Shown one piece after another: positions 11,205 to 56,940 of a DNA stretch of 64,000 nt. Below the pieces are notes generated by a model, which did no database searches, had not been told where the DNA came from, and worked only from the letters and a program-made list of their open reading frames with translations. Positions within the stretch are counted from its first letter, which is position 1; every line of letters begins with the position of its first letter. A program made the position numbers and the translations under genes. Source of the DNA: an uncultured Bacillales bacterium (lineage in GTDB: Bacteria > Bacillota_I > Bacilli_A > RFN20 > CAG-826); the NCBI GenBank assembly GCA_946403545.1, contig CAMJAG010000001.1, forward strand, positions 872 to 64,871, given 5' to 3'.

Positions 11205-11205
11205 A

Positions 11206-41746: not shown

Positions 41747-43099
41747 CTATTTCTTAAATCCTACACAAACAAAGCGGTTAACTGCGTACCAAAAATCATT
41801 TCTAGAGAAACGATATTGGAGTTGCGTTAACAAATCTTCCATTTCATTGAACTCTGCTTTAGTTTGCTCATTTTCGTTTGCGATTAATTGAGCTTTAAAA
41901 TAATTCAATCTATAAGCAAAGCTTACTTTATAAAGACCTAATTTCTCTTCATAAGACATATGAGATGTTTCTGTAACAGTGCAATGCATTTTAACTTTGT
42001 TAAATCCTTCATGGACTAACCAAGAATAAAGTTTTCTACCATTGTTTCTATCAGACATTCCTTCAAGAGAATAAGATTTCTTTAAGACTTTTTCTATAAG
42101 CTCATCATCTCCATAAGAAATCTTACTGCCATCATCACTACCTCTAACAATAATCATTCCGCCTTTATTCATAAGAGCCTTTAAATTCTCTAATGCTTTT
42201 TCAGGATTTGTTAGATGATGGAGGACTAAGAAACAAGAAACAACATCAAAGCCTTTAATGCCCTTTTGCTTCATTATTCCCTGCATTTCCTCCATAAATG
42301 TTGGACTTTCAATATTTAATTGATAGAAAGAGAACTTACTATTTTTATTATTTTTATTTGCTTGTTCAATAGCACTTTCACTAATATCGATTCCCACTAC
42401 TTTAGTGTATTTTGCTTTTCTAAAAGCTTGTCTAGTTACATATCCTTGAGCGCAACCAACATCTAGAACTGTGTAATTGTTTTTGTCTAAATACATGTCT
42501 AAAATGCGTTGGTTTTCATCATCATATCTAGATCCTTGGCTTTTTAATCTTTCTGATTCATTAGTGAAATCAAATTCATAAATAGACCATCTTCCTTTGT
42601 AATCAATGCAATCTTTTGGTCTTGGTCTAGAAACTAAAAACCTATTAAACAATCTCTTTTGATAATCATTTACATCAAAAACATCACCAATTGGTTCACT
42701 ATGACAATCTCTAATTGCGTCAATTTCCTTTGGTAACTTTTTTGGATAATTAACTTTATCTAAGAATAAAACTAGAATATTTAATCCTTCAGTTTTTAAA
42801 GCGGTTTCTATTTCTTGTCTAACCCAGTCATCTTTTTTAAATATTCTCTTAGAAAATGTATCTGGAGTTACAAGAAGAATAAAGTCTTTGGAATTATGGA
42901 TTGCATTAGTTAACTGAGGTGGAAACATACCACCTTGAATTGATACCTTATCAAAGAAACTTAGATAACCATTATCCATCAAATTTCTATATAAAAGATA
43001 CGTTGGATATAATCCATCACTTCTTCTATATGAAATGAAAACATCATATATAAAATCTTTTCTCTTAATTTGAGTGTTTTTATTAATTTCTTCAGGCAT
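41747..43099 (-). CDS. TIR domain fused to a class I SAM-dependent methyltransferase
   Basis: N-terminal TIR (FIYDVFISYRRSDG ... ILLVTPD) and a C-terminal Rossmann MTase (motif I VLDVGCAQGYVT, motif IV-like DVVSCFLVLHHL). Confidence 0.8.
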   Translation of the reverse strand: MPEEINKNTQIKRKDFIYDVFISYRRSDGLYPTYLLYRNLMDNGYLSFFDKVSIQGGMFPPQLTNAIHNSKDFILLVTPDTFSKRIFKKDDWVRQEIETALKTEGLNILVLFLDKVNYPKKLPKEIDAIRDCHSEPIGDVFDVNDYQKRLFNRFLVSRPRPKDCIDYKGRWSIYEFDFTNESERLKSQGSRYDDENQRILDMYLDKNNYTVLDVGCAQGYVTRQAFRKAKYTKVVGIDISESAIEQANKNNKNSKFSFYQLNIESPTFMEEMQGIMKQKGIKGFDVVSCFLVLHHLTNPEKALENLKALMNKGGMIIVRGSDDGSKISYGDDELIEKVLKKSYSLEGMSDRNNGRKLYSWLVHEGFNKVKMHCTVTETSHMSYEEKLGLYKVSFAYRLNYFKAQLIANENEQTKAEFNEMEDLLTQLQYRFSRNDFWYAVNRFVCVGFKK

Positions 43100-43198: not shown

Positions 43199-45580
43199 AT
43201 GTATCCTGAATTACTTGCTATTTTCATTATTACTGGAGTTGTTGAACTCGTTTTAATAGGTGTATTTTTTTATAACCTAATCAGATATAGATATCTTGGT
43301 AATAAATATTTTTACGTAACTGTAAGTGTATTAGTTCTTTTGATGTATTCAACATTCGTCAATAGATCATCAGATCTTTCTATTTCTATGTTTGGAAACA
43401 TAGTGTTTGACACTATTGCGGCAGCAGTAGGTAAAGTTGATACTGAAAAGATTTCTTGGCTGTTTTTACCGGGCGAATGGAATAAATGGCTAGTAATTTT
43501 CTACTTTATCGCCTCATATACAACATTCGCATTCTTATCCATCACAGTTATTCTTAACTTTGCAAAACTCTTCTTAAATGCATTTATTTTCTATAAAAGA
43601 CGAATTATAAATGGAGCAAATGTGTACTATTTGTTCACAGATTCTAGAAATGAAACAGTAATTCCTTTAGCCACTAAACTATTAGATGAAACAAAAGGTC
43701 GTAAAAACTCAGTTAAAGTTTTCGTTTCTAGAGCATCTTTAAAAACTCAAGAAGGTAATGAATTTAGAGATATGTTAGTGGGCTTAGGCATTCCTGTTCA
43801 AGCTGAAAAATTCTCATACAGGATGGCTAGAAAGATCTTTAATTCTAGATACTTCAAACTACATCTTTTTGATAAGCAACAATCGTTTATTTACTTACTT
43901 TTCTCAAATGACGAAACCACTACAAAAGTGGCAACTGATTTCAAAACAGCGATTCAAAAGAATCGTAAGTTTAAAAAAATTAACGACTTTGTAACTCTTT
44001 TAAAGGAAACAAAAGACAAAGATAAATTAGAGAAATTAAAAGAGAACTTTAATGAGAAAGAATATGATTTATTACAAAAAATCCAAATCTTTGTCACTTA
44101 TCAAGAAACAGATTTAGATATTCTCCATAACTTCTCTGGAGAGACATTGCATATCATGAATACTCTTTCTAAGTACGACATGATTGCTTCTAGATTTGTA
44201 TTTGATAATCCAATCTCTCAATTAGTGGACTTAAACAACATCAAACTTAAAGAAGACAATAAACATTTAAATGTTACACTCCTTGGTTTTGGTGTTATTG
44301 ATAGAGCAATATTTGAAAGAATGACATTCTCTTATCAACTTTATGGAGATAATATTAACAAAGTTAATTACCATGTTTTAGATAGAGATGCTGATTCTTT
44401 AATTAAACCTTATGTAAACGAATATACAGATAGAAATAACAGTGTTTATCTATACTCTATCGACTCCGCTTTCGATGGAGAAGATTTAAGACACTACGAA
44501 ACAATTGATAGATATATCTCATCATTGCAAAACGATCCAAACCGTTTCCAAGATGATGGTTTTGAAATCTTTGTTATTTCAGTCATAAACTCAAATAACG
44601 ATTTAAATATCGCGCTTAACTTAAGAAGAGCTATCTTAAAATACTTCAATGATAGATGTGAACAAGTTGTTATTTACGTCAGAGTTGCAGAAAGACTCAT
44701 TGGAGAACAATTCAGAGGTTCAAATCTTTCATACACATACGAAACTCTCTCTCATATTCACGAAGTAAAAGACTTCAATAAGAAATCTGATGTAGAGAAA
44801 GAAGCATACTTCAACTCATTCAAGGACGAGGAAGAAAGAAAAGCAGCAGAGAAAAGATTAATTAAAGATTTAAAAGCACCTATCATTCTCTTTGGTAATG
44901 ATGCAATTATGTCCACATATCTTGCTAGAGAACATAAATACTTCATGGGATTCGCTGAAAACGCTTGGAAATCCTACCAATTAGAACAAGCTTATAACAA
45001 TTATTCTGAAACTCAACTTGATAGATTATGGTTAAGACAAAATAAACAAGAAGTTAAAAATAACACTGATTATGTTCTTTCACTTAGAACAAAGCTAAAC
45101 TTATTTGGCTACAAACTAAATCTAAATAAACAAGAAAACCAATACTTAATGGTTCCTGGTGATGATGTTTCAATTCTTACTTCAGGTGAAAATGAAGAAA
45201 CATTCCTTGAAAGAACAAAACTTAAAGATGAAACTGGTGATGTTGCAAAAGTTCTTAAGATTGCTGATATGGAACATAACCGCTGGTTACAATCCAATAA
45301 CCAAAGATTTAGATATTTATCTAAAGATTACACAAAGGTCGAGGATCAAGAACTATTTGGAGTGAATAAATACACCAATGAAAAAGAAATCACAAGGAAA
45401 TATAACGACAATACACAACACATTTGTATGGTCACTAATGAGGGATTAAGAGACTTCTACAATTATGTTGGAAAGAAAAATCCTGAATATAAAGATGTCG
45501 CTTTAAAACTTGTGTACACAAACGATATTGTTCAGTTAAGAACGATAATCAAAAATGGAACAGAACAAAAGAATAAATAA
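43199..45580 (+). CDS. Membrane protein with four N-terminal TM helices and a ~650-aa cytoplasmic domain of unknown function
   Basis: 793 aa with a hydrophobic N-terminus and no recognisable motif in the soluble part. It is followed by a terminator. Confidence 0.55.
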   Translation: MYPELLAIFIITGVVELVLIGVFFYNLIRYRYLGNKYFYVTVSVLVLLMYSTFVNRSSDLSISMFGNIVFDTIAAAVGKVDTEKISWLFLPGEWNKWLVIFYFIASYTTFAFLSITVILNFAKLFLNAFIFYKRRIINGANVYYLFTDSRNETVIPLATKLLDETKGRKNSVKVFVSRASLKTQEGNEFRDMLVGLGIPVQAEKFSYRMARKIFNSRYFKLHLFDKQQSFIYLLFSNDETTTKVATDFKTAIQKNRKFKKINDFVTLLKETKDKDKLEKLKENFNEKEYDLLQKIQIFVTYQETDLDILHNFSGETLHIMNTLSKYDMIASRFVFDNPISQLVDLNNIKLKEDNKHLNVTLLGFGVIDRAIFERMTFSYQLYGDNINKVNYHVLDRDADSLIKPYVNEYTDRNNSVYLYSIDSAFDGEDLRHYETIDRYISSLQNDPNRFQDDGFEIFVISVINSNNDLNIALNLRRAILKYFNDRCEQVVIYVRVAERLIGEQFRGSNLSYTYETLSHIHEVKDFNKKSDVEKEAYFNSFKDEEERKAAEKRLIKDLKAPIILFGNDAIMSTYLAREHKYFMGFAENAWKSYQLEQAYNNYSETQLDRLWLRQNKQEVKNNTDYVLSLRTKLNLFGYKLNLNKQENQYLMVPGDDVSILTSGENEETFLERTKLKDETGDVAKVLKIADMEHNRWLQSNNQRFRYLSKDYTKVEDQELFGVNKYTNEKEITRKYNDNTQHICMVTNEGLRDFYNYVGKKNPEYKDVALKLVYTNDIVQLRTIIKNGTEQKNK

Positions 45581-45586
45581 CCTATG

Positions 45587-45615
45587 AAAAGCCATAGAAC
45601 TGGCTTTTCTTTTTA
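45587..45615 (+). terminator. Intrinsic terminator after the 793-aa membrane protein gene
   Basis: AAAAGCCAtagaacTGGCTTTT followed by CTTTTTAC. Confidence 0.55.
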
Positions 45616-45632
45616 CTTTACACTACAAATAC

Positions 45633-45645
45633 ACGCATAATGCGT
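45633..45645. promoter_or_regulatory. Perfect 13-nt palindrome ACGCATAATGCGT upstream of the ATPase-ClpP operon (candidate operator)
   Basis: An inverted repeat 50 nt upstream of the 45695 start, followed by a second palindrome, TTTGTAgaaaTACAAA. Confidence 0.3.
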
Positions 45646-45694
45646 TATATAATGGATTTGTAGAAATACAAATATAGCAATGGAGAATTAGATT

Positions 45695-46618
45695 ATGATT
45701 ACAGAAATTCATAAGAATTATTCTGCTTTTCGAGAAATGTTGTTAGCCACAACTGCTTTAAGCAACCGTTCTAGTAAGAAATATGATGACGATTGCAAAG
45801 CAATCATTGATTTCATCGGAGAAGCATATGGTCTAGAAAAAGACCTCGTAGAATATTGTAAAAAGGTCATTTTAGATGAACTAGTTACAATATCTACTGA
45901 CCAAGATATCCGCGCTTTCGTAAATTCACATACCGCTGACAGTGAATTAGAAGAATTAGACTCTTTATTAAGCGCTAAATGTGATGTTATTGGAGTTATT
46001 AGAAACTTTGGAGAAGTTAGAAGTCCTCAATTAAGTGAGACTTGGTTTGACTATAGTCATAGCAATCCATATTATCCAGAAATTAGATATCAACAATTAT
46101 CTATCGCTGCTTCCACAGGTAATGTAGTAGCAAATAAGATCGTTGGTATTCTTTCTGTTTTAGGTATTGGATGCGAAGCTACTAGAGAAAAGGTTCTTTC
46201 TGGAGTTTATAGACTTAGACAATGCGCTATTTGGGGAGACATTTCTTCTCTAATTATGATTAGACAAGTTTATAGAATCTTAGAAATGAAAGAACAAGTA
46301 AAACTCTATGATGAATTAGTGTCATTAGTACCTTTCATGAAAGAAGGAAGAACAGTAATTCCTCAAAGAATTGCAGAGAAAATCTCTAGAGAAGCAATAG
46401 AAACATTCGCAATTATCTGTTCTATTAAACAAGACATTATCTTAAATCAACATAAGTTCTACATAGATTATTCATTCGTTGAAGTTATGTTACTTAAAGA
46501 AGTTGATTACTATGATAAACTCCACTTCATTAATAAATATGACGCTCAAGAGTGGAAAGAAGTTACTAACTCATCATTTAATCCAAATAAGAAGATTGGA
46601 TTTAAGATTGGAGAATAG
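45695..46618 (+). CDS. Hypothetical protein, first gene of the ATPase-ClpR/ClpP operon
   Basis: 307 aa, alpha-helical, with no recognisable domain. The C-terminus ends in ...KKIGFKIGE (an IGF tripeptide). It sits 3 nt upstream of the ATPase gene. Confidence 0.5.
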   Translation: MITEIHKNYSAFREMLLATTALSNRSSKKYDDDCKAIIDFIGEAYGLEKDLVEYCKKVILDELVTISTDQDIRAFVNSHTADSELEELDSLLSAKCDVIGVIRNFGEVRSPQLSETWFDYSHSNPYYPEIRYQQLSIAASTGNVVANKIVGILSVLGIGCEATREKVLSGVYRLRQCAIWGDISSLIMIRQVYRILEMKEQVKLYDELVSLVPFMKEGRTVIPQRIAEKISREAIETFAIICSIKQDIILNQHKFYIDYSFVEVMLLKEVDYYDKLHFINKYDAQEWKEVTNSSFNPNKKIGFKIGE

Positions 46619-46621
46619 ATT

Positions 46622-48586
46622 ATGAAAAGAAGACCATATTCTGAACAAGTATCTCAAAAATACATTGATCAAAATCTTGAAAACACTCAAATAATGTCCT
46701 TCCTTGAATATAAAGGTAAAGGCTACGCTAAATACTTATTTGATGATTTAGCAAAAACTGATATCAAAGGATTCCCATTCTCTAGTGATTTTGTATCTTC
46801 TAAAGGGAAATCATATTCCTTTATTGATTTTGAAAATCTAAGTGATAAAGAAAAAGCGGATTGTAAACTTAGATTCTTCTATTTACCTAATTATCATGAG
46901 TTATATATCGGTACTACTGGTTCTGGTAAAACTACAGGATGTATTGAACCACAAATCAGAGCGATATCCACTCAAAAGAATAAAGCTAACTTATTTATTA
47001 CTGACCCTAAAGGTGAGTTATTTGAACATAATGGTAAATACTTAAAAGACCAAGGTTATAACGTATTTGTTCTTAACTTTAGAAACTTAGGTAGAACTCA
47101 TACATGGAATCCACTTAAAGAAATGTATGAAAAACAAATGGAATCTCTCACTATTGGAAAGAATAGTAAGAAATGTAATTGTCCAGTAGATAAGTCACTA
47201 GCGTTAATGTCTGAAAAGAGTAAATATCAAGGCACATATATTGCTTATAAACACATGGCATTTGCAACACAAGAAGACTTTGATAAATACGTGAATATTG
47301 AAACTTATTTAAATAAATCCAAAGTTTCTTCATTAGTTAACCAATTATGTGACTGTATCTTTAGTGAAGATAAATCCACTACAGATAGAACTTGGAGTGA
47401 TGGTGCTAGAGGATTATTCCATGGTATTTTATTGTCCATGTTAGAAGAAGCTGTTTTACCAGGAAGTAAGTTTAGCGAACAACATATGACATTAAAGACA
47501 GTTAACGATATCTTCAATTTAATTAGAGAAGGTAGCGAAACTCGCGATTCATATGGAGATCACTACACTAACGAAGAAATGCATGAGAAGATGGTAGACT
47601 TCTTGCATGGTAAATCATCTATTTGTATGAGCAAGTTAAATAATATTATTAAGACTGCTCAAACAACGAGAAAAGGGTTTTTATCAACATTCTTATCCAC
47701 TACTGAAAAATGGATGCAAGGTCACATCTATCAATTGACAAGTCATACATCTATTTCTCTAGAAGATAATGAACATCCTTGGGCGGTATTTGTATCCACT
47801 AGAGACTATGATAAATCAGATAATGTTATCGCTGGTTTATTCATTGACTGGGTATATAGACAATCTCTACAAGCTGTTGAAGAGAAACGTAAACTCGGTT
47901 TAGAACCTAGACCAATTCACTTCTTATTAGATGAATTCGCTAACATTCCAAGAATCCCTGACTTTGATAATAAGATTGCTACTGCTAGAAGTAGAAATAT
48001 GTGGTTCCACTTATTCGTTCAATCTTATGATCAATTAGATTTAATCTATGGAGAAGAAACAGCCTCTATTATCGTAGATAACTGTAACCAACAAACATTC
48101 TTAGGTTCTCAATCTCAAGAAACTAAAGAAAGATTCTCTAGAGAATGTGGTAAAAAGACTGTTACATCCTTAGAAGGTGTTATTCATGGTGAAGTTAACG
48201 ATGTTGTAGAAATCCCAGTTGTGCCTATCACAAGTCTAGATCAAATCAAACCTGGTGAAATGTACACTAAACGTATTTATTCTCCAATATTAAGATGTAG
48301 CTTTATCAGAAGCTATCAATGCGCTCAACAAGGTATCTTTAAAAACTTCTGGAATAATAAAGCGGAAGAAGAACTTATTCCACTTAACTATGTTATTCCT
48401 GATGATTTAGAACATTCTTATTTACCAGTATTAAGCGCTATTGAAGTAAGAAGATTATGTCCACCTAGACCAAGAAATCCTCGTAGTAGAGTTCAATACG
48501 AAGATGAAGACATGGAAGCAGAAGATCCTGAAGACTTTGAAGACTTCTTACATGAAGTTCAACTTAAGATGAAAGGAAAGAAGTAG
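46622..48586 (+). CDS. Soluble VirD4/TraG/TraD-type (type IV coupling protein-like, FtsK-HerA superfamily) P-loop ATPase
   Basis: Walker A IGTTGSGKTT, the T4CP DPKGE motif (ITDPKGELF), Walker B HFLLDEFANIP, and QSYDQLDLIYGEE. There is no N-terminal TM anchor, and the C-terminal tail is acidic. Confidence 0.8.
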   Translation: MKRRPYSEQVSQKYIDQNLENTQIMSFLEYKGKGYAKYLFDDLAKTDIKGFPFSSDFVSSKGKSYSFIDFENLSDKEKADCKLRFFYLPNYHELYIGTTGSGKTTGCIEPQIRAISTQKNKANLFITDPKGELFEHNGKYLKDQGYNVFVLNFRNLGRTHTWNPLKEMYEKQMESLTIGKNSKKCNCPVDKSLALMSEKSKYQGTYIAYKHMAFATQEDFDKYVNIETYLNKSKVSSLVNQLCDCIFSEDKSTTDRTWSDGARGLFHGILLSMLEEAVLPGSKFSEQHMTLKTVNDIFNLIREGSETRDSYGDHYTNEEMHEKMVDFLHGKSSICMSKLNNIIKTAQTTRKGFLSTFLSTTEKWMQGHIYQLTSHTSISLEDNEHPWAVFVSTRDYDKSDNVIAGLFIDWVYRQSLQAVEEKRKLGLEPRPIHFLLDEFANIPRIPDFDNKIATARSRNMWFHLFVQSYDQLDLIYGEETASIIVDNCNQQTFLGSQSQETKERFSRECGKKTVTSLEGVIHGEVNDVVEIPVVPITSLDQIKPGEMYTKRIYSPILRCSFIRSYQCAQQGIFKNFWNNKAEEELIPLNYVIPDDLEHSYLPVLSAIEVRRLCPPRPRNPRSRVQYEDEDMEAEDPEDFEDFLHEVQLKMKGKK

Positions 48587-48587
48587 T

Positions 48588-49133
48588 ATGGCTAACGATA
48601 ATTTTGAAGAATTATATAAACAAGGAATTATAGTCATCACTACTGGTATAGAAGATATGGATGTTACTAGTAACATCATCTTATCTCTTCTTAATTGGAA
48701 CAGAATTGATCCAAAGAAAGAATTACAACTCTATATCTCTTCAGTATCTGGAGACTACCTAAATGTCCTTTCTATTTATGACGCTATCCAATCAATTAGT
48801 AATCCAATTTCAGGATATTGTATTGGTTTAGTTGGTAGTTGCGCTGCACTACTTTTAGCGGCGTGTAACAAAGGTAAACGCTACATTTTAGAGCATAGTC
48901 AAATTGCTTTAAGAGAGATTTCTGGCATTATTCCTGGTGGAAGTAAACAACAAACAGAAATCGAAATTCTCGCAAACGAATTAGCGTCTCAAAGAGAAAC
49001 ATTTGAATCTCTTCTTTCAAAACATACAGGTCAATCCGTTGAAGAAATACACCACCTTTGCTATGAAAACACTTATTTAACTCCTGAAGAAGCTATTAAA
49101 AAAGGCTTCGTAGATAAGATTGTGAGGAAATAA
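48588..49133 (+). CDS. ClpP-fold protein lacking the catalytic His and Asp (ClpR-like inactive paralog), N-terminally short
   Basis: It aligns to ClpP (YISSVSGDYLNVLSIYDAIQSI...GLVGSCAAL). The Ser position is kept, but His (IHQP becomes LREI) and Asp (ERD becomes YEN) are replaced. It lacks the N-terminal axial-loop segment. Confidence 0.7.
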   Translation: MANDNFEELYKQGIIVITTGIEDMDVTSNIILSLLNWNRIDPKKELQLYISSVSGDYLNVLSIYDAIQSISNPISGYCIGLVGSCAALLLAACNKGKRYILEHSQIALREISGIIPGGSKQQTEIEILANELASQRETFESLLSKHTGQSVEEIHHLCYENTYLTPEEAIKKGFVDKIVRK

Positions 49134-49135
49134 TT

Positions 49136-49648
49136 ATGGATAACAGAATTATTACTTTAAATGGTGAAATCAACGAAGGAAGCGCGATGAAAGTTATTCT
49201 TTCATTACTTCAAATGGATGCTGAAAATAGAAAACAACCAATATATCTATATATCAACTCTCCTGGTGGAAATATTGTTCATGGATTAGCAATATATGAT
49301 GTTATGAATAACATATCCGCTCCGGTATATACAGTATGTAATGGCATGGCAGCATCGATGGGTAGTTTCTTACTCTCTTGTGGTGCTAAAGGACATAGAT
49401 ATTGTTTAAAACACTCTCGTATTCTTATCCATCAACCACTTGTCTATAACAACTATGGAAGAATGATTGAAGAAAGCGAAGCTCAACAAATCGCCGCTAA
49501 TTTAAGAAAAGATAGAGATAAATTAGAACAAATCATGGCAGACAATTCTGGTAAAGACATTAAAGTCTTCCATAAGGATTGTGAAAGAGACCATTGGATG
49601 AGCGCTCAAGAAGCTCTAGACTATGGTCTAATAGATAAGATTATCTAA
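49136..49648 (+). CDS. clpP: ClpP-family serine peptidase with an intact Ser-His-Asp triad but missing the N-terminal axial loops
   Basis: GMAASMGS (Ser), ILIHQP (His) and CERDHWMSAQEALDYGLIDKI (Asp) are present. It is 170 aa, against ~195-200 for canonical ClpP. Confidence 0.8.
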   Translation: MDNRIITLNGEINEGSAMKVILSLLQMDAENRKQPIYLYINSPGGNIVHGLAIYDVMNNISAPVYTVCNGMAASMGSFLLSCGAKGHRYCLKHSRILIHQPLVYNNYGRMIEESEAQQIAANLRKDRDKLEQIMADNSGKDIKVFHKDCERDHWMSAQEALDYGLIDKII

Positions 49649-49655
49649 GAAAAGA

Positions 49656-49680
49656 GGAAGTCCTAGACTTCCTTTTATTT
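49656..49680. terminator. Bidirectional terminator between the two convergent operons
   Basis: GGAAGTCctaGACTTCC stem followed by TTTTATTT; the IMPase stop codon lies within the T-run. Confidence 0.55.
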
Positions 49681-50433
49681 CACTCTATTAAGTATTAACT
49701 CAAGTGTTTCTTGGTTATTTGCAACCACTAATGAATCGCTACCAAATTCGTATTCTTTTTTATTGATGGTTTTATAAACCATTCCAGCTTCTTTTATCAA
49801 TAAAAGACCTGGTGCTATATCCCATATGTAATTGTAGTAGCAGATATATGCTTGTGCTTTTGATGTGGCTAATGTAGTAAAGTCTACACAAGCCGCTCCT
49901 AAAAGTCTCGTTTTAAGGAAATTCCCTTGTAAATCCTTCATTAATTCAAATTGTTTATCAAATGAAATGGTTTTGTTATCTTTATAAAAATCACTAGATA
50001 ATAAAACTCCATCTTCATGTTTAATATCTTTATTTACTTTAATAGGTTTTCCATTAAGGAAAGCTCCACCATCTTTCTTAGCAAGATATAACTCATCCTT
50101 ATATGGCAAATAGATTATTGATAACACTACTTCTTTCCTTTGGAAAACCGCTAGTTGAATACCACAAAGTTCTATGCCCATTGAATAGTTACAAGTGCCA
50201 TCAAGTGGATCGATAACAAAGGTTAGTTCATCTGTTAGTGGTTCGTTTTTACTTTCTTCTGCGATTATTTTTGCTTGAGGGAATTCTTTTTTAATAGCGT
50301 TAACAAAATAATCATTAAGTTCTAAATCCGCTTCTGAGAGTAAGTCATTAATAGATTTATGTTTAATTGATTTATGTTGCTTAAAGAATATGTCTTTTGA
50401 AGATAAAACTAGTTGTTTTAAATACTCTTCCAT
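49675..50433 (-). CDS. Inositol monophosphatase / CysQ-family phosphatase
   Basis: EES metal site, DPLDGT and WDIAPG motifs; 252 aa. It sits 4 nt downstream of the TIR-NACHT gene. Confidence 0.8.
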   Translation of the reverse strand: MEEYLKQLVLSSKDIFFKQHKSIKHKSINDLLSEADLELNDYFVNAIKKEFPQAKIIAEESKNEPLTDELTFVIDPLDGTCNYSMGIELCGIQLAVFQRKEVVLSIIYLPYKDELYLAKKDGGAFLNGKPIKVNKDIKHEDGVLLSSDFYKDNKTISFDKQFELMKDLQGNFLKTRLLGAACVDFTTLATSKAQAYICYYNYIWDIAPGLLLIKEAGMVYKTINKKEYEFGSDSLVVANNQETLELILNRVK

Positions 50434-50437
50434 GCGA

Positions 50438-53284
50438 TTATCCCTTCAAATCTCTAATAAATTTCTCAACATGTTTAATCCATGTTAATACTGATTCATT
50501 TTGTAAGTATTCGTATTTTCTTGTTACTTTTTGTGCTTCGCAAATCAAATTATATAAAGCTTGTGCTTCAGTTAATTCGATTGGAATATTTAGTTTTTCC
50601 GCAATTTCAATTGCTTCAGAACAAGGAGCTTCCGCTTTTGCAAGTAAGGAAGTATCTCCATTATAGTTTACTAAATAGTAAAGAGAAGTTAAGAAATAGA
50701 TTTGACCTTGGTCATATAAATCTTTATTCTCTTTAGCACATTTCATTGCTTCTTCTTTTAATTCCATGATCCTTGCTTCATTGCCACGATTAACAATTTC
50801 ATAGAACATAGATGTATATAAGAATCTTGTGTAATATCTATCATGTTGGTTATATAAGACATAGATTGCTTCCGCTTTATTAAGTTTATCTTTAGCTTTA
50901 GCTAAATCCATATGCCATATACATGCATCAGCGTATACACGATAGTCTTCCGCTAAGAAGAGGTGATCTCCAATTTGAGTGCCATCTTCCATTTCTTCTT
51001 TAACTCTTTTATCAAGAAGCGCGACAGCATTATCTGCTGCTTTATAGCAGTTTTCTAAATCAAGCCTTCTACAATAAACTTTTGATAAAGTTAAGTTAAT
51101 CAAAGATTCTTCGTATAAATCGCCTGCTTCTTTAGCGTCTTTGATCGCACCATCACTCATTCCTATGAGTTCGTCGAATAGCACCATCTTGCGATAAACA
51201 AGCATTGCCATTCTTTCAAATTCACTACGAATTTCTATGTCTAATTCGCCTAAATCATGTTCTTTGATGAATTCTTTAATGTCATTAAATGCTTCAGTAA
51301 ATGATAAGGAAATATAGTGGAATTGAATAACTCCCATATCATAGTTCACATCATCACTTGGATCTCTATTCTTTAAGAACTTACCAAATCCTGCTTCTTT
51401 AAGTTTGATAAATAAGCCAGCGTTATAGATTGCTTGTCTATATTTGATAAAGATTTTTGTAAAACATTCAGACTGATAGATTTCAAACGCTTCATAATCA
51501 TCATCCTTATAGATGTAATTGATGTTATCAATGTATTCAAATAATCCTTCATAAAGAGTGTAAAGTTTTGATTTAATACACACTCTTAAAAAGTCAAAAT
51601 TCTTTAATAGTTTACAAAGTTTTTCTGTCTTTTTAAGTGCTTTTAAGGCTTTTTGATAGTCTAAGATGACATAAGGATTGTTCTTCCATTCACCTAATTC
51701 AATTTGCTTTTCAATATATTCAAGCAAGATCTTATAACCATCTCTTCTAGAGACACAATATTTTGCAGGACATTCGTTAGATTCACTTAACCAGTCTAAA
51801 ATTGATTTATGTCTACTCTTAAGAGTGCCATCTTCAATAATTACAAAGTAATTAGATACTATATCGATATTCTTTCTAATTTCAGATTCTGATAGACCTG
51901 TTGCATCCGCTAAAAACTCCACTGTTGGAGGAACGCTTGTAGCGAGTAATAAAGATATAATCTTTCTAATATCTTCATAATCATCTGGTGCTTTAGGGAA
52001 AATTCTATCAAACCAGATTAAGTAGTATGAATAAATTCCGTCAGGGAATTCTCTAACGTTATCTAAAGAGTATTCACCACTCTTAATTAGACTAACAATA
52101 CTCTTAGCATATAAGAATGATCCATGTGTTTTTCCAAGCAAAATCCTCAGTGTTTCTGCATCGAATTTATAATTTGAGAGTGCTTGGTCATAATACTTTT
52201 TAATATCCGCAACGTTTTCTTCATTGTTTTCTAACATGCTGAAAACGTGACAACTTGAGAAGTAACTAACAACATTCTTTTGAGGTCTAGTTGAACATAA
52301 AATCTTTAACCAAGAAGGTAAAGTGTTTTGATAAGTCACTATCATCTCAGCAATTTCATTTTTATTATCCAAAACTGCTTCATCTAATGCATCGATAACA
52401 ATTATTTGAGGGTTCTTAAAAGTAACTTTGTTACCTACTTCAATAAAGAACAACTCAAATAATCTTTTAGCGTCTAAATTATCTATATTTGCTTCTCTAG
52501 TTAAAATCTTTTTAATTTCGAGATTATAATCTTCGTTACGACCAGCGATTTGTGCTGCTAAGTTTTTAATAATACTTCTAGCGTCAGTCTTAGTTCTATT
52601 ACCAAAGCTACAGAAATGGATACCTGCAACATTGTTATGGAAATTAATAGTTAACATAGCGCACATTGCAGTCTTTCCAATACCTGGAGCAGCTTGTAAT
52701 AAATAGATTGGTAAACTATCTGGTTTATTAATCCATTTTTCTACATCCGCGAAGAAAGAATCTCTACCAACAAAGTTGAGTGTATGATGAGTAATTTCAA
52801 AAGCGTCAATAGCTTGGACTTCTTTAGAAATATCAAAACCAGTATCGAAGTAGCCTACTTCTTCTTCGTTTCTAACGATCTTTAGTAATCTTTGATAGCA
52901 ACTTTCGTATACATCTTCAATGATTGAATTATCCGCTGCGACAGCGTTTTTAATCATGATTCTTTGTAAACGAACAATTGAAAGAGGAACATAAGAGTCA
53001 TCTAACATGATAGGAACAATTGTTTTCTTATATTCCACTGCTCTAGCGAGTTCATTTAAACAATATCCGTCTAGAGAAACAGACTTTTTAGATACAAAGA
53101 AAACAAAATGACTACATCTTTGAATCGCGTTATCAATTTTAGTTTCCCAATCACCTTGATATAGATAGTCCTTATCAAGGAAGACTTCATAAACTTCTTC
53201 TTTGCGTAAATCAGTAACAACTTTATTGACTACGTTTTCTAAAGTTTGATGTCCATAGGATATGAAAATAACTTGTTTATCCAT
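50438..53284 (-). CDS. TIR-NACHT-TPR protein (bacterial STAND/NLR-like NTPase with a TIR effector domain)
   Basis: N-terminal TIR (VIFISYGHQ...FVFFVSKKS), a NACHT Walker A LLQAAPGIGKTAMCA and Walker B IIVIDALDEAV, and C-terminal TPR-like helical repeats; 948 aa. Confidence 0.85.
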   Translation of the reverse strand: MDKQVIFISYGHQTLENVVNKVVTDLRKEEVYEVFLDKDYLYQGDWETKIDNAIQRCSHFVFFVSKKSVSLDGYCLNELARAVEYKKTIVPIMLDDSYVPLSIVRLQRIMIKNAVAADNSIIEDVYESCYQRLLKIVRNEEEVGYFDTGFDISKEVQAIDAFEITHHTLNFVGRDSFFADVEKWINKPDSLPIYLLQAAPGIGKTAMCAMLTINFHNNVAGIHFCSFGNRTKTDARSIIKNLAAQIAGRNEDYNLEIKKILTREANIDNLDAKRLFELFFIEVGNKVTFKNPQIIVIDALDEAVLDNKNEIAEMIVTYQNTLPSWLKILCSTRPQKNVVSYFSSCHVFSMLENNEENVADIKKYYDQALSNYKFDAETLRILLGKTHGSFLYAKSIVSLIKSGEYSLDNVREFPDGIYSYYLIWFDRIFPKAPDDYEDIRKIISLLLATSVPPTVEFLADATGLSESEIRKNIDIVSNYFVIIEDGTLKSRHKSILDWLSESNECPAKYCVSRRDGYKILLEYIEKQIELGEWKNNPYVILDYQKALKALKKTEKLCKLLKNFDFLRVCIKSKLYTLYEGLFEYIDNINYIYKDDDYEAFEIYQSECFTKIFIKYRQAIYNAGLFIKLKEAGFGKFLKNRDPSDDVNYDMGVIQFHYISLSFTEAFNDIKEFIKEHDLGELDIEIRSEFERMAMLVYRKMVLFDELIGMSDGAIKDAKEAGDLYEESLINLTLSKVYCRRLDLENCYKAADNAVALLDKRVKEEMEDGTQIGDHLFLAEDYRVYADACIWHMDLAKAKDKLNKAEAIYVLYNQHDRYYTRFLYTSMFYEIVNRGNEARIMELKEEAMKCAKENKDLYDQGQIYFLTSLYYLVNYNGDTSLLAKAEAPCSEAIEIAEKLNIPIELTEAQALYNLICEAQKVTRKYEYLQNESVLTWIKHVEKFIRDLKG

Positions 53285-53966
53285 GTACTTTTTCCTCTAA
53301 AGCAATGTTATAACCCGCTTTCTTGCCTTCATTTAATGTTTCTTCATTTGCTAAATGCATAAGAGTAATTTTCTTTCTCTCTTCCATATTGAAGGCGTTA
53401 TTTAATACTGAAATATGAGTATGTATCATCGCATTAAGAGAAGTTGTAACTTCATGATACATTTCATCTATTTTTCCTGATTTAAGTTCTCTAACTGCTC
53501 TATCAAGTAGTTCAGATGTATCTCCTGAATAGTAGAAATTAATTTCTTTAGAATATACAAAATATGCATAACTACCAGGAATATGTGGAACTTCAACAGG
53601 TTCCACTTTTAAATCTTTGATTAAAGAGTAGTCATTATATATTTCAAAATCAAAATCTAAACCAGTTAATTGGAGTAGTTTTTTAAGATTATCTTTTAAA
53701 GGATAGAAGACTTTTACCGTCTTTTTTGAGAAGAAATGAATCCAATATAAGAATGGTTCAAGGCTTCCAATATGATCACTATGAAGATGGGTAATTAAAA
53801 CAACAATTTCATCAACATCATCTAAAAGATGAAGTGCTAAAATCTTGTCACAAATTTTCTCGCCCATATCAAAAATATACAATTTGCCATTTTGTTTAAA
53901 ATAAGCACAATTGTTATTTGTGAAATAGTTAAAAGCGGCTCCTACACCTAAAAATTTTAAATACAT
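53277..53966 (-). CDS. Metallo-beta-lactamase-fold hydrolase
   Basis: HxHxDH motif (ITHLHSDHIGS); 229 aa. It overlaps the TIR-NACHT start by 8 nt. Confidence 0.7.
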   Translation of the reverse strand: MYLKFLGVGAAFNYFTNNNCAYFKQNGKLYIFDMGEKICDKILALHLLDDVDEIVVLITHLHSDHIGSLEPFLYWIHFFSKKTVKVFYPLKDNLKKLLQLTGLDFDFEIYNDYSLIKDLKVEPVEVPHIPGSYAYFVYSKEINFYYSGDTSELLDRAVRELKSGKIDEMYHEVTTSLNAMIHTHISVLNNAFNMEERKKITLMHLANEETLNEGKKAGYNIALEEKVHG

Positions 53967-53968
53967 AA

Positions 53969-54226
53969 TTATTTAATTATCTTATAGCCTTCTTTAAGAA
54001 TACATTTAATCGTAGCAAGAGCGGTATTCCTATCATATTCTTTTTCTTCTTCAGGAAGTTCATCATAAGGCACTAAACAAGGAGTTTGTTTTTTAGTGTC
54101 ATTTCTTTCTGGACCATAGGTCCATCCATCTTTGATTCTTCCTTCCATCCAAGTTATATGGACTTGTTCCGCTATTATTTCGATAAGTTGTTTTATATCT
54201 TCAGTGATAACAATATCTTTTTCCAT
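53969..54226 (-). CDS. RyR-domain (ryanodine-receptor-like) small protein
   Basis: 85 aa matching the bacterial RyR-domain pattern: HITWMEGRIKDGWTYGP...TPCLVPYDELPEEEKEYDRNTA. Confidence 0.55.
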   Translation of the reverse strand: MEKDIVITEDIKQLIEIIAEQVHITWMEGRIKDGWTYGPERNDTKKQTPCLVPYDELPEEEKEYDRNTALATIKCILKEGYKIIK

Positions 54227-54228
54227 AA

Positions 54229-54666
54229 TTATTCGTCTTCTAGTATTTTTTGAAATAAGCTGTATTCATCTCTAGTTATTGTATCATCACTAGCAGTTAG
54301 AGCGATACCATATAAAACAACAGCAGTTTTAGTATCTTCATCAAATTCTTCTTTGATATTATTTACCATTGCTTTAACAAAAGCTTCTTTATCTCCAAAT
54401 TGAGTAGCATGGAAGAATTCTCTATAAGAAACATCTAATCCTGTTGCTTCTTTAAAGAATCCATATTCCTTAACAGCGCAATCTTTATCAGCAGAAACGT
54501 ACATTCTAGTTAAGTTAATAACAATATTAGCGATTCTATCTTTGTGATAATCTTGTTTTCTAAGATTACGATAAAGTCTTTCTAAAGCTTGTCTACCTAA
54601 CTTTGCTCTTTCAGCATCTTCTAAATTAACAACTTCATGCATGACTCGTTCTACTTCTTTATTCAT
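54229..54666 (-). CDS. TerB-like domain protein (paralog A)
   Basis: 145 aa, helical, with VSADKDCAVKEYGFF and a C-terminal ASDDTITRDEYSLFQKIL, similar to the tellurite-resistance TerB fold. It is paralogous to 54903..55349. Confidence 0.5.
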   Translation of the reverse strand: MNKEVERVMHEVVNLEDAERAKLGRQALERLYRNLRKQDYHKDRIANIVINLTRMYVSADKDCAVKEYGFFKEATGLDVSYREFFHATQFGDKEAFVKAMVNNIKEEFDEDTKTAVVLYGIALTASDDTITRDEYSLFQKILEDE

Positions 54667-54681
54667 AATATGTTCTTCCTA

Positions 54682-54903
54682 TTATTTTTTACTTTTTAGA
54701 TTACAAGCATTTGGGAAATTAATTTCCCACGCTGCTGCTCTTGCTATTTGAAGTAATTTATATTTCTTATCTTCATCAGTTATCTCTTTGATAACTTCTT
54801 TAGTATTTGGATTTAACAAAAATATTTTGGATTCTTTAACTCCAAATACTGAATCTCTTACTTCGTATAAGTGTCTTCCGTTACGAAATTGAAATGGTTT
54901 CAT
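54682..54903 (-). CDS. Small hypothetical protein
   Basis: 73 aa; overlaps the upstream gene by 1 nt. Confidence 0.35.
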   Translation of the reverse strand: MKPFQFRNGRHLYEVRDSVFGVKESKIFLLNPNTKEVIKEITDEDKKYKLLQIARAAAWEINFPNACNLKSKK

Positions 54904-55349
54904 TATGCAAGCAATTTGTCGATTAAATCTTGTTCTGCAACTGTTAATGTGTGGTCACTTGCTAAGAAAGTAACTGCAAATAAGACCATACTTGTTCTTG
55001 TTTTGTTATCTGCTTTTTTCATTAAGTTAGCAAATTCATTAACATAATCATCATCTAAGCCACCATTGGTCATGTCATAGAATGTATCTGTATCCATATC
55101 AATACCAGTGACTGCTCTAAAGAAAGAATATTCTGCTCCACTACATTTGCCATCAGCAGAAACTAAAATTCTAACTAAGTGAATAATTAAGTTAGTAATT
55201 TCATCCTTATTACAACCGAGTTCTTTTAAACCTCCGATAAAGTCGTTTAAAGCATGTGCAGCAATATTAACTTTTTCTTGTGGTTCTTCGTTTAAAATGT
55301 TTTGGCACATTTTTCTTAATTCAGCATCCATATGAAATCCTCCCATCAT
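54903..55349 (-). CDS. TerB-like domain protein (paralog B)
   Basis: VSADGKCSGAEYSFF and a C-terminal ASDHTLTVAEQDLIDKLL. The likely start is an internal Met near 55334. Confidence 0.5.
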   Translation of the reverse strand: MMGGFHMDAELRKMCQNILNEEPQEKVNIAAHALNDFIGGLKELGCNKDEITNLIIHLVRILVSADGKCSGAEYSFFRAVTGIDMDTDTFYDMTNGGLDDDYVNEFANLMKKADNKTRTSMVLFAVTFLASDHTLTVAEQDLIDKLLA

Positions 55350-55436
55350 TAATGAAAGACTTCAAACATATAGTTTTTGTCCATTCAATTACATATAAAT
55401 ATCTGTCTAAATTTATTTTATCATTTTTAAAGAACA

Positions 55437-55465
55437 AAAAGAACACGTTTTTAACGTGCTCTTGT
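55437..55465 (-). terminator. Terminator downstream of cysK
   Basis: AGAGCACGTTaaaAACGTGTTCT-type hairpin (one mismatch), then a T-run on the minus strand. Confidence 0.4.
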
Positions 55466-55513
55466 GGTGGGTTTATAGTCTCTAAATAGCCAGGGGGACT
55501 ACTTATTGCTTAA

Positions 55514-56443
55514 TTAATCTTGAAACATTGCAGTAGATAAGTATCTTTCACCAGTATCTGGGAATAAAACAACGATAGTTTTACCTGCATTTTCTTCTCT
55601 TTGCGCTAATGTGATAGCAGCTTTTAAAGCTGCACCTGAAGAAATACCAATTAATAATCCTTCTACTCTAGCGGATTCTCTACCCATTTCAAATGCATCT
55701 TCATTTGCGATAGGAAGGATTTCATCATAGATCTTTGTATCTAATGTATCAGGTACGAAACCTGCTCCGATACCTTGGATCTTATGAGGACCTGGAGTAC
55801 CTTTGGAAAGAACTGGAGAAGTTTCTGGTTCAACCGCTACTACTTTGATAGAAGGTTTCTTTTCTTTTAAGTATTTACCTGTACCTGAAATAGTGCCACC
55901 GGTACCAACACCTGCAACAAAATAATCTAAATTACCTTCTAAATCATTAAAGATTTCTGGTCCTGTTGTTAAGTAGTGAGCTTTAGGATTAGCAAAGTTA
56001 GTGAATTGAGAAGGAATAAAAGCATTAGGAATTTCTTTTGCTAATTCTTCTGCTTTTGCAATAGCACCTTTCATACCTTTGCTACCTTCAGTTAACACTA
56101 ATTCAGCGCCATAAGCTTTTAATAAGTTTCTTCTTTCAATAGACATTGTTTCTGGCATTGTAAGAATAATCTTCATACCAAATGATGCTGCAACCATGCT
56201 TAATCCAATACCAGTATTACCACTTGTAGGTTCTACTAATACTGTATCTTTATTAATTAATCCTTTATCAAAAGCATCTAAAATCATTGCTCTAGCAATT
56301 CTATCTTTAACACTACCTGCAGGGTTAAAAGATTCAACTTTTGCAATGATTTTTGCTTTTAAATTGTACTTTTTCTCAATGTTTTTAAGTTCCACTAATG
56401 GAGTGTTTCCAATTGTGTCCACTATTCTTTCATAGACTTTCAT
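55514..56443 (-). CDS. cysK: Cysteine synthase A (O-acetylserine sulfhydrylase)
   Basis: PLP-enzyme motifs [24 protein letters not shown] and GTGGTISG; 309 aa. Confidence 0.9.
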
Positions 56444-56532
56444 AATTCTACCTCGTTTTTACTAATCCTATATGTTTAATAGGTTTACAATATAATAGCA
56501 CTGTGTTATACTTATGTCAACGAGGATGAATT

Positions 56533-56940
56533 ATGAAATTATCAAGTAAAAGTATTACCGCAATTAAAATGTTTATAGATCTAGGAGAACATTATGAAGA
56601 AGGATATATCTCACTTGTGGATATATCTAATAGAAAAGAAATATCTAAAAAGTTCCTAGAACAAATAGTGCCTTTATATAAAAAAGCAAAATTATTAGAT
56701 TGTAATAGAGGAAATAAAGGTGGATATAGGTTAGCAAAACCTGCTATTAAAATTACATTAAAAGATATCCTTTATATCTCTGAAACTAATCTTATTAATG
56801 ATGAGAAAGATAAATCTATTGTTATAAACAATATCATTGAAGGATTAGATACCACTATTGATAACTATCTAAGCTCAATCACTCTTGAATCATTAGTGGA
56901 TCAACAAAAAGAAAGCTACACTACTGATTATTTTATTTAA
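56533..56940 (+). CDS. Rrf2-family transcriptional regulator (CymR-like), divergent from cysK
   Basis: N-terminal Rrf2 wHTH (ITAIKMFIDLGEHYEEGYISLVDISNRKEISKKFLEQIV); 135 aa. Confidence 0.8.
   Translation: MKLSSKSITAIKMFIDLGEHYEEGYISLVDISNRKEISKKFLEQIVPLYKKAKLLDCNRGNKGGYRLAKPAIKITLKDILYISETNLINDEKDKSIVINNIIEGLDTTIDNYLSSITLESLVDQQKESYTTDYFI

Follow-up and report, generated by a model that had tools for sequence, protein, structure and literature searches.

A stretch of 64,000 nucleotides (nt) from an uncultured Bacillales bacterium (contig CAMJAG010000001.1 of assembly GCA_946403545.1, positions 872 to 64,871 of the forward strand), hereafter called the window, contains a compact operon-like group of genes built around a protein in which a TIR domain is joined to a NACHT-type STAND NTPase. 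All seven open reading frames (ORFs) of the group are present, head to tail on the minus strand. In the order of reading they encode TerB-like protein 1 (55349-54903), a lineage-specific product of 73 amino acids (aa; 54903-54682), TerB-like protein 2 of 145 aa (54666-54229), a stand-alone RyR-domain protein of 85 aa, homologous to Repeat12 of the ryanodine receptor and to the phage RyDEP family (54226-53969), a metallo-β-lactamase (MBL)-fold hydrolase of 229 aa, which is an Apyc1-like class II phosphodiesterase (53966-53277), the STAND protein itself, of 948 aa, in which the TIR domain and the NTPase are followed by a winged helix and TPR-like helical repeats (53284-50438), and a phosphatase of the inositol monophosphatase (IMPase) superfamily, of 252 aa (50433-49675). 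The first two genes overlap by 1 nt (TAATG), so that the start of the 73-aa ORF lies on the upstream stop codon, 15 nt separate this ORF from the gene for TerB-like protein 2, gaps of 2 nt precede both the RyR and the MBL gene, an 8-nt overlap (ATGGATAA) joins the MBL gene to the STAND gene, and the IMPase gene follows after 4 nt. Coordinates, overlaps of 1 and 8 nt and gaps of 2 to 15 nt agree with an original prediction made from the sequence of the window, which is to be corrected at two points: the 8-nt overlap had been assigned to the start of the MBL gene, but it is the 3′ end of this gene that runs over the STAND start; and the first gene probably begins not at 55349 but at ATG 55331, giving a protein of 142 aa, because GGGAGGA stands 7 nt upstream of this codon and the resulting length agrees with that of a homologue in a related locus (L001). 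Shine-Dalgarno-like purine runs stand before four starts inspected, the start of the 73-aa ORF being the exception.

Upstream of the group, a strong terminator-like hairpin of cysK (55463-55439) is followed by an 89-nt leader or promoter region (minus strand, 55350-55438) that reaches to the first gene; downstream, the IMPase stop codon is followed on the minus strand by a terminator-like hairpin (49655-49673) with an 8-bp stem, which includes four G-C pairs, and a T-rich tail. A terminator and promoter scan gave no convincing promoter match in the leader, and Rfam gave no riboswitch or leader RNA across 49400-56700, so that the position of the transcription start is presumed. Inside the group only weak terminator-like and promoter-like matches were found, the promoter matches not rising above those in shuffled sequence. 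Since the genes share a strand, are joined by small gaps or overlaps and are bracketed by terminators, they are most simply read as a single transcription unit. Two independent metagenome contigs have the same arrangement, one (L057) with all seven genes and the other (L058) with the same gene set except that the contig begins within the gene for TerB-like protein 2, and in both the RyR gene is 98% identical to that of the window.

Among the domains originally predicted for the operon, TIR, NACHT-type, RyR, MBL and IMPase were borne out by Pfam, whereas TerB is found only as a remote, sub-cut-off relationship and TPR is not called by Pfam in the 948-aa protein. In this protein TIR_2 (2e-15) and the NACHT-type NTPase model NPHP3_N (6e-22) are both above cut-off, the winged-helix model HTH_TANC1 (4e-5) reaches 23.9 bits, under its cut-off of 27, and homologues also match the Pfam NACHT model PF05729. 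The catalytic glutamate of the TIR domain, which the prediction had left to be checked, is E78 in the motif DGYCLNELARA; it is invariant in an alignment with 26 full-length homologues (27-99% identity), and in the structures of Caenorhabditis elegans TIR-1/SARM1 its counterpart is the Glu of the ‘KEL’ motif, which, in view of SARM1 E642, we take to be the catalytic residue. The Walker A residues G201/G203/K204 (GxGKT) and the Walker B residues D298/D301/E302 (DALDE) are invariant in the same 26 homologues. A confident AlphaFold2 model of the protein (predicted local distance difference test, pLDDT, 87.5) is all-helical from residue 513 on, and its top matches in Foldseek are Avs3, the plant TIR-NLR protein RPP1 and an archaeal STAND-TPR protein, with MalT and TPR proteins also found. 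The Pfam TPR matches of the homologues are faint or distant; since no TPR is called in the protein itself, but the model is helical and Foldseek finds TPR proteins and the sensor region of Avs3, we speak of TPR-like helical repeats. The mean pairwise identity of this C-terminal domain is 0.39, as compared with 0.44 in the NACHT region, and its most conserved motif, DRYYxRxLYT, is kept also in the clades partnered with an MBL enzyme, so that the conserved patch is not specific to one partner. The STAND proteins of Bacteroidota and Sphaerochaetaceae have an additional N-terminal zinc ribbon. PADLOC has no model that matches the STAND protein apart from the TIR level, and none that matches the other six proteins of the operon. 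The family has no relatives in the viral contigs of IMG/VR and only distant partial matches in the plasmids of PLSDB, and a phage- or plasmid-borne origin was dropped in view of these results.

Which of the neighbours belong to the STAND gene? The loci compared comprised 51 genome loci found via STAND alignment, nine added by looking up homologues of STAND or IMPase and, from metagenomes, 80 found via RyR, and all of their ORFs were scored with the window proteins. An IMPase gene is directly adjacent to the STAND gene in about 30 of the roughly 42 STAND-fetched loci of the family, and in about 35 non-identical loci when the IMPase-fetched ones are added. Typically it lies downstream on the same strand, with stop and start codons overlapping or within a few nt of each other, these distances being approximate because ORF starts were called naively. 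The adjacency persists down to about 28% STAND identity, its hosts being Bacilli, Clostridia (Lachnospiraceae, Oscillospiraceae and others), Anaeroplasma and a Sphaerochaetaceae genome, and it is found in more than 20 different flanking contexts, such as downstream of rpoA-rplQ, between asp23 and nusB, or beside PTS, ZIP, PGI or GDSL genes. The order of the two genes is swapped in L043, an Anaeroplasma contig, where they are still adjacent at a distance of 15 nt. The IMPase gene, which had been regarded as a terminal add-on to the operon, is thus the most constant partner of the STAND gene.

The IMPase itself (Pfam Inositol_P, PF00459, 5e-48) matches the structure 2PCR (3.5e-26), its nearest relatives in the Protein Data Bank (PDB) being the FBPase/IMPases of Aquifex and Thermotoga and SuhB. 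It is above the cut-off of none of the NCBIfam equivalogs; the best is HisN, and the HisN, FBPase/IMPase and SuhB models outscore those of CysQ, which give 63 bits against a cut-off of 229 (TIGR01331) and 31 against 379 (NF008182), so the enzyme is closer to FBPase/IMPase, SuhB and HisN-like enzymes than to the CysQ type first proposed. Its catalytic residues E59/E60, D75-P-x-D78-G-T80 and W204-D205 are at least 95% conserved across the STAND-linked homologues, and the pairwise identities of STAND and IMPase proteins correlate with r=0.84 (Mantel p=0.001). IMPases of at least 40% identity form a block that is set off from generic IMPases by a score gap. When sampled from the IMPase side, five of seven members of this clade lie directly downstream of a TIR-NPHP3_N gene, and an outgroup IMPase is unlinked. 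The other side of this sampling is P0106 (L137:6001-6786), 54% identical to the window IMPase, which stands alone near trmK, sigA and dnaG, and its closest relative P0105 (L148:5001-5777), which stands alone near trmK; in these two loci either the ancestral condition has been kept or a STAND gene has been lost.

In loci without the IMPase, other enzymes usually stand in the partner position. A related MBL gene is found downstream in its place in seven loci of a distant clade of about 25-28% identity (Olsenella, metagenome-assembled genomes of Clostridia, Bacteroides and Marinifilum), a HAD phosphatase of the Cof type (Hydrolase_3, 2e-66) in two loci (L029 and L032) and a cupin-Nudix protein in one (L041), while a PHP phosphoesterase gene precedes the STAND gene in another (L034). 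An MBL gene upstream of the STAND gene, as in the window, occurs in 11 loci. In L005 a gene for an Sfp-type 4′-phosphopantetheinyl transferase (10835-11422) overlaps the stop codon of a STAND homologue of 34% identity; the by-product of this transferase, 3′,5′-ADP, is a typical substrate of the IMPase family. The flanks of L005 resemble a mobile element, with genes for PIN, helix-turn-helix and CI-repressor proteins. Among the related loci compared, L018 is the only one in which no phosphohydrolase-type neighbour is found. ABC ATPases, HtrA, Spo0A and an α/β hydrolase were considered as further recurrent partners and turned out to be generic housekeeping genes. The rule that emerges, because the IMPase is usual and other enzymes appear where it is missing, is a TIR-NACHT gene with at least one small phosphohydrolase. 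The seven-gene combination proposed as one system does not generalize: it is lineage-specific, the conserved unit being the TIR-NACHT-TPR gene with the adjacent phosphohydrolase, often with an MBL gene, whereas RyR and TerB-like genes accompany STAND homologues in four lineages each and the 73-aa gene in one. The expected co-occurrence of neighbours with STAND homologues accordingly stands for IMPase and MBL, and for RyR and TerB-like proteins in a minority of lineages only.

Type II Thoeris TIRs produce histidine-ADP-ribose (His-ADPR). The phosphatases beside the STAND gene belong to the HAD (L029 and L032), PHP (L034) and IMPase-like (the window and about 35 loci) superfamilies, and these are also the three known, mutually unrelated families of histidinol-phosphate phosphatase (PMC5516325). 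The match may be a coincidence.

The MBL-fold hydrolase has the HxHxDH motif as THLHSDH and is above the Pfam cut-offs of Lactamase_B and Lactamase_B_2. It scores 46.0 bits with the Apyc1 model, for which the cut-off is 50, and 25 with the NCBIfam model of cyclic-nucleotide phosphodiesterase, for which the cut-off is 400; in the PDB it matches 7FCT (6e-27) and the Apyc1 structures 7U2R (3e-16) and 7U2S (2e-11). As it stays under the curated Apyc1 cut-offs, it is named Apyc1-like and not Apyc1. The similarity to 7U2R makes a phosphodiesterase of the Apyc1 type likelier than the nuclease effector that had been among the suggestions for this gene. Chromosomal homologues of Apyc1 are common and are active phosphodiesterases of cyclic nucleotide monophosphates, and they have been proposed as host regulators (PMC9117128; PMC11724313).

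The RyR-domain protein matches Pfam RyR (PF02026) with 3e-26, above cut-off, and in the PDB the Bacteroides thetaiotaomicron RyR protein 3NRT (3e-28) and Repeat12 of RyR1-3. Of the ligand and catalytic residues of RyDEP, H75, W78 and D117 have identically spaced counterparts in H23, W26 and D65, and T48 stands in place of H100. RyR-domain proteins were recently found to bind or hydrolyse 2′/3′ cyclic ADP-ribose (cADPR) made by TIR proteins (2026; PMC13232231). Among eight further phage homologues of RyDEP assayed in the same study, cleavage of the signal was seen in none and binding alone in six, and host-encoded RyR copies in TIR operons are not discussed there (PMC13232231). This published action on TIR-made cADPR isomers points to a specific link between the RyR gene of the operon and the TIR domain. 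In the 60 metagenome loci where the small RyR gene could be called, a TIR-domain protein is encoded within three genes of it in 20, mostly immediately upstream; beyond three genes, two of about 140 genes were TIR-positive. Besides TIR-NACHT proteins, the partners include a TIR-WD40 protein (983 aa), a 507-aa TIR protein with nSTAND1, and a TIR-FGE-sulfatase protein with TPR-CHAT. The small RyR gene lies directly downstream of such other TIR genes in L062-L067, L075, L119-L122 and others. In some 13-20 loci (L073, L079, L085, L088, L093, L096 and similar ones) it follows a gene for a protein of 1660-2024 aa in which YDG and bacterial Ig-like domains are found, and in some of them an IS66 transposase intervenes; no TIR gene was called within three genes of it in these loci. 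Beside STAND homologues, RyR genes occur in four lineages: the window, Marinifilum (L035), Bacteroides (L040) and Sphaerochaetaceae (L041).

A further kind of neighbour, of 620-800 aa, adjoins the small RyR gene in L035, in L040 and in about 12 metagenome loci (including L072, L074, L103, L117 and L129). These proteins have membrane helices (TM, seen by inspection) at the N-terminus and a RyR domain at the C-terminus, and between the two a Slo-like RCK domain is weakly supported by Pfam; such TM-RCK-RyR proteins resemble membrane effectors that are gated by a ligand and have RyR as their sensor. In L035 (7538-9397) and L040 (14953-17073) their genes lie beside TIR-NACHT and MBL genes.

The two TerB-like proteins are paralogues of 33% identity that share a duplicated motif of the ‘ADG-x6-E’ type. 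Their Pfam TerB (PF05099) matches, with E-values of 0.0025 for TerB-like protein 2 and 0.031 for TerB-like protein 1, are below cut-off. A word-indexed homologue search returned only two matches, and an exhaustive profile search among 1.8 billion representatives gave about 300 clusters at 50% identity, nearly all of about 140 aa, with D60, E67, F84 and E133 conserved (members P0194-P0342). Of 150 members scanned, 24 touch Pfam TerB, at best with 1.4e-5, and no other family recurs. ‘TerB-like’ therefore denotes a remote relationship, that of a family with no Pfam model of its own as judged by these searches. Genes of this family adjoin an MBL gene in L001 and L002, and in L014 (as a tandem pair), L015 and L019 they are found at 3-6 kb from the STAND gene. 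The 73-aa ORF has no significant match in Pfam, PADLOC, NCBIfam or PHROG, and among the loci compared its only homologue is in L057, i.e., in the same operon. Both TerB-like proteins, like the 73-aa ORF, are best taken as accessories specific to this lineage.

The operon of the window lies in a defence island. To its right are cysK and an Rrf2 regulator gene. Directly to its left, a five-gene operon on the plus strand (43199-49648) converges on the IMPase gene and encodes a 793-aa protein, a 307-aa protein with a weak match to a Tis1 immunity protein, a VirD4/TraG-like coupling ATPase with a weak PADLOC match to the MADS component mad8 (2e-10), and two paralogues of the ClpP family. A conjugative element was considered for this flank, in view of the VirD4-like ATPase and the two ClpP proteins, and rejected, as no integrase or relaxase was seen and the weak MADS link and the neighbouring TIR genes point elsewhere; instead of serving conjugation, the five-gene operon could make up a defence system of its own. 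The TIR genes in question, 8-16 kb from the operon, encode a 276-aa ThsB-like protein with two TIR domains (38999-39829, plus strand; PADLOC ThsB 1e-14) and a 450-aa fusion of TIR with an S-adenosylmethionine-dependent methyltransferase (41747-43099, minus strand; PADLOC mad2 2e-16), with a 411-aa protein that has no match encoded between them; no known Thoeris effector was seen around them. A comparable island is found in Bacteroides cellulolyticus (L040:4063-17949), which contains cas1, cas2, CRISPR-like tandem repeats, and genes for a zinc-ribbon-TIR-NACHT protein, an MBL protein, a TIR-STING protein, a small RyR protein, a TM-RCK-RyR protein and a patatin phospholipase.

What, then, would the TIR-NACHT protein and its hydrolases do together? 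With modest confidence we favour the reading that it is an NLR-like NADase sensor, the nucleotide products or substrates of which would be processed by dedicated hydrolases; by this we go beyond what was observed, namely gene order, domains, intact catalytic motifs, conserved linkage and co-divergence, and infer an antiviral function, an NADase activity of the TIR domain, and both the substrates of the partners and the direction in which they act. An outline of the process could be as follows: the helical-repeat C-terminus would sense an infection cue, the NACHT-type NTPase would then drive oligomerization, the N-terminal TIR domain would then cleave NAD(P)+ to ADP-ribose (ADPR)-type nucleotides, and the partner hydrolases would act on the nucleotide substrates or products of the TIR domain. 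Since five unrelated phosphohydrolase folds occupy the partner position, they would share a chemistry rather than a structural role. Two versions of this outline can be envisaged, each of them less probable than the outline itself. In the first, basal or spent product would be cleared, so that a threshold is set, self-harm is prevented and the system is reset, in a manner comparable to that of type III CRISPR ring nucleases; RyR would buffer or open cADPR isomers, and the MBL enzyme and the phosphatase would remove phosphodiester and phosphomonoester products. In the second, the destruction of NAD(P) would be made complete and irreversible: the IMPase would remove the 2′-phosphate of NADP to feed the NADase, or dephosphorylate 2′-phospho products, RyR would open cADPR isomers to ADPR, and MBL, Nudix or phosphatase enzymes would break ADPR-type intermediates that phages could rebuild into NAD+. 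NADP phosphatase activity has been reported for enzymes of the IMPase family.

Several observations weigh against this reading. The RyR, TerB-like and 73-aa genes are absent from most of the loci, and most STAND-IMPase pairs lie amid housekeeping genes and not in defence islands, the collections of phage contigs and plasmids searched containing none of them. The C-terminal domain lacks the hypervariability of the fast-evolving sensors that have been reported for proteins of the bNACHT01 type. Among ADPR and cADPR, the classic TIR products, there is no obvious substrate for a phosphomonoesterase, and, as an IMPase cannot biochemically stand in for a phosphodiesterase, nor the reverse, to speak of replacement of one by the other may overstate their equivalence. 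The co-divergence of STAND and IMPase could in part reflect shared vertical descent, and the stand-alone P0106 and P0105 in their housekeeping context indicate that such an IMPase need not be dedicated to a STAND protein.

The absence of the four upstream genes from most homologous loci would be explained at once if the operon were a mosaic, in which MBL, STAND and IMPase form one unit and the TerB-like, 73-aa, TerB-like and RyR genes are a separate module or leftover cargo, functionally unconnected with it. It also fits this explanation that small RyR genes are found with many other TIR proteins and with large surface proteins of an unrelated kind, that the TerB-like genes of L014, L015 and L019 lie kilobases away from the STAND gene and not next to it, and that the 73-aa gene is limited to the lineage of the window. 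Against it are the 2-nt gaps and the weakness of any terminator-like or promoter-like match inside the unit, the recurrence near STAND homologues, in four separate lineages, of RyR genes and likewise of a TerB-like family as rare as some 300 clusters, and the published biochemistry that ties RyR domains specifically to TIR products. We regard the mosaic as doubtful, and still as the rival with the best standing.

The housekeeping surroundings of the pairs might instead mean that the IMPase is an ordinary metabolic enzyme, or one of the Nus-factor type like SuhB, with the STAND gene upstream of it by inherited synteny and with no joint function. The Nus factor SuhB is indeed among the PDB matches of the IMPase, solitary members of its clade with 54-59% identity have trmK nearby, joined by sigA and dnaG in the case of P0106, the pairs as a rule have housekeeping genes on their flanks, as after rpoA-rplQ or between asp23 and nusB, and vertical descent would also give co-divergence. 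Inherited synteny, however, does not readily account for a pair that is kept across more than 20 flanking contexts and several phyla, that stays adjacent when inverted in L043, the stop and start codons of which overlap or nearly touch in most loci, and in which another phosphohydrolase takes the position when the IMPase is absent; this explanation is therefore unlikely.

Translational coupling, which suggests production in a 1:1 ratio, could also be read in terms of a guard and its guardee: the IMPase or other partner would be a host protein targeted by phages and watched by the C-terminal repeats of the STAND protein, so that its disturbance fires the TIR domain. A C-terminal domain unusually conserved for a sensor, the co-divergence of the two proteins and the housekeeping-like relatives of the IMPase would all suit a guarded protein. 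A bait, however, does not need the catalytic residues that the partners strictly conserve, the motif DRYYxRxLYT is retained in MBL-partnered clades and so is not a patch for one partner, and five unrelated enzyme folds fit a shared chemistry better than a shared bait, which makes this arrangement rather improbable. Least probable is that the TIR-STAND protein and its phosphatase have no part in immunity and regulate NAD(P) pools, stress or dormancy by sensing a conserved cellular ligand, as the seemingly vertical inheritance, housekeeping flanks, absence from phage and plasmid collections and conserved sensor domain might suggest, given that the TIR-STAND architectures tested are antiviral (bNACHT preprint; likewise Avs), that the copies of the window and of L040 lie in defence islands, and that relatives of RyR and Apyc1 are known from conflicts of phage and host signalling.

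If the favoured reading of an NADase sensor with its own hydrolases is carried further, to a point where we follow it only tentatively, the family would represent a widespread and unrecognized class of NLR-like TIR proteins of gut bacteria, immune NADases each with its own nucleotide-processing pathway. Host RyR proteins might then be ancestral receptors or glycosidases for TIR-made cADPR isomers, acting here as a soluble buffer or enzyme and elsewhere as the sensor of channel-like TM-RCK-RyR effectors, while the MBL, Nudix, IMPase, HAD and PHP hydrolases might degrade ADPR-type products, either to reset immunity or to deny phages the ADPR, ADPR pyrophosphate (ADPR-PP) or nicotinamide mononucleotide (NMN) from which NAD+ is rebuilt. 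Were this so, the system would be a host answer to phage pathways of NAD reconstitution, phage RyDEP and Apyc1 would be captured host regulators, and the link between cADPR and the ryanodine receptor could be traced to bacterial immunity.

TIR-NLR proteins are central to the immunity of plants and bacteria, and the ways in which cells restrain or make use of the nucleotides they produce are still little understood. If the partners act on TIR products, the two to seven genes described here would make a compact system in which to study how the host controls ADPR-type immune nucleotides. Bacterial RyR-domain proteins, the only known function of which so far, reported in May 2026, is in immune evasion by phages, would thereby gain a role in the cell, and this would explain the source of RyDEP-like and Apyc1-like genes in phages. 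As the RyR protein is kin to RyDEP and the MBL enzyme to Apyc1, the operon holds, beside a TIR protein, host relatives of two phage proteins that destroy immune signals. The TM-RCK-RyR proteins suggest a new class of effectors gated by cADPR isomers, and, if the IMPase either feeds NADP to the NADase or blocks the rebuilding of NAD+, a new layer would be added to the arms race over NAD+.

How does the family relate to known systems? In the literature (searched in full text), the 2025 survey of TIR systems and the PADLOC models, no description of a TIR protein with an IMPase, RyR or TerB partner was found, the RyDEP preprint being the only relevant item, and the prediction that the combination is undescribed agrees with this. 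With TIR-STAND proteins of the bNACHT/Avs type the window protein shares a TIR effector, a NACHT-type NTPase with intact Walker motifs, TPR-like C-terminal repeats and a fold like that of Avs3 and RPP1, and both TIR and TPR are listed among bacterial NACHT architectures (bNACHT preprint). The described members, however, act as single genes, whereas here an adjacent phosphohydrolase is near-obligatory, the C-terminus is conserved and not fast-evolving, the settings are mostly housekeeping, and the PADLOC match is at the TIR domain only. The likeness to Thoeris consists of a TIR domain with a catalytic Glu and, in the same operon, a member of the RyR family that recognizes Thoeris-type signals, and in L035 and L040 the membrane-bound TM-RCK-RyR protein beside the STAND gene could serve as a signal-activated effector. 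In contrast to Thoeris, the TIR domain is fused to a STAND sensor and the window operon has no PADLOC match to ThsA or to a ThsC-ThsL effector, which places it outside that system. The 2025 survey of Thoeris types contains no RyR, phosphatase or NACHT partner, and sets aside the TIRs of Avs (AVAST).

The RyR protein belongs to the same family (PF02026) as phage RyDEP, a glycosidase or sponge for 2′/3′cADPR, and has its His, Trp and Asp positions with identical spacing, but a host carries its gene, within a TIR operon, and it has Thr at the position of H100, the His that contacts phosphate. Similarly, the MBL protein shares with Apyc1, the anti-Pycsar phosphodiesterase of cyclic nucleotides, the MBL fold, the HxHxDH motif and significant similarity to 7U2R and 7U2S, but it is linked to a TIR-STAND protein and not to a cyclase and stays under the Pfam Apyc1 cut-off. 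In type III CRISPR systems with ring nucleases, and in plant TIR-NLR pathways with NUDT6/7, a hydrolase that removes an immune nucleotide is encoded or regulated jointly with the producer of that nucleotide. The logic proposed for the STAND-phosphohydrolase pair would be similar, with different enzyme families, and the minimal two-gene form shows no evident signal-dependent effector. Thus, the core gene is of the known bacterial TIR-NACHT/STAND kind, and what appears to be new around it is the near-obligatory phosphohydrolase partner, the three-gene MBL-STAND-IMPase form, the recurrent host RyR genes and the TerB-like family.

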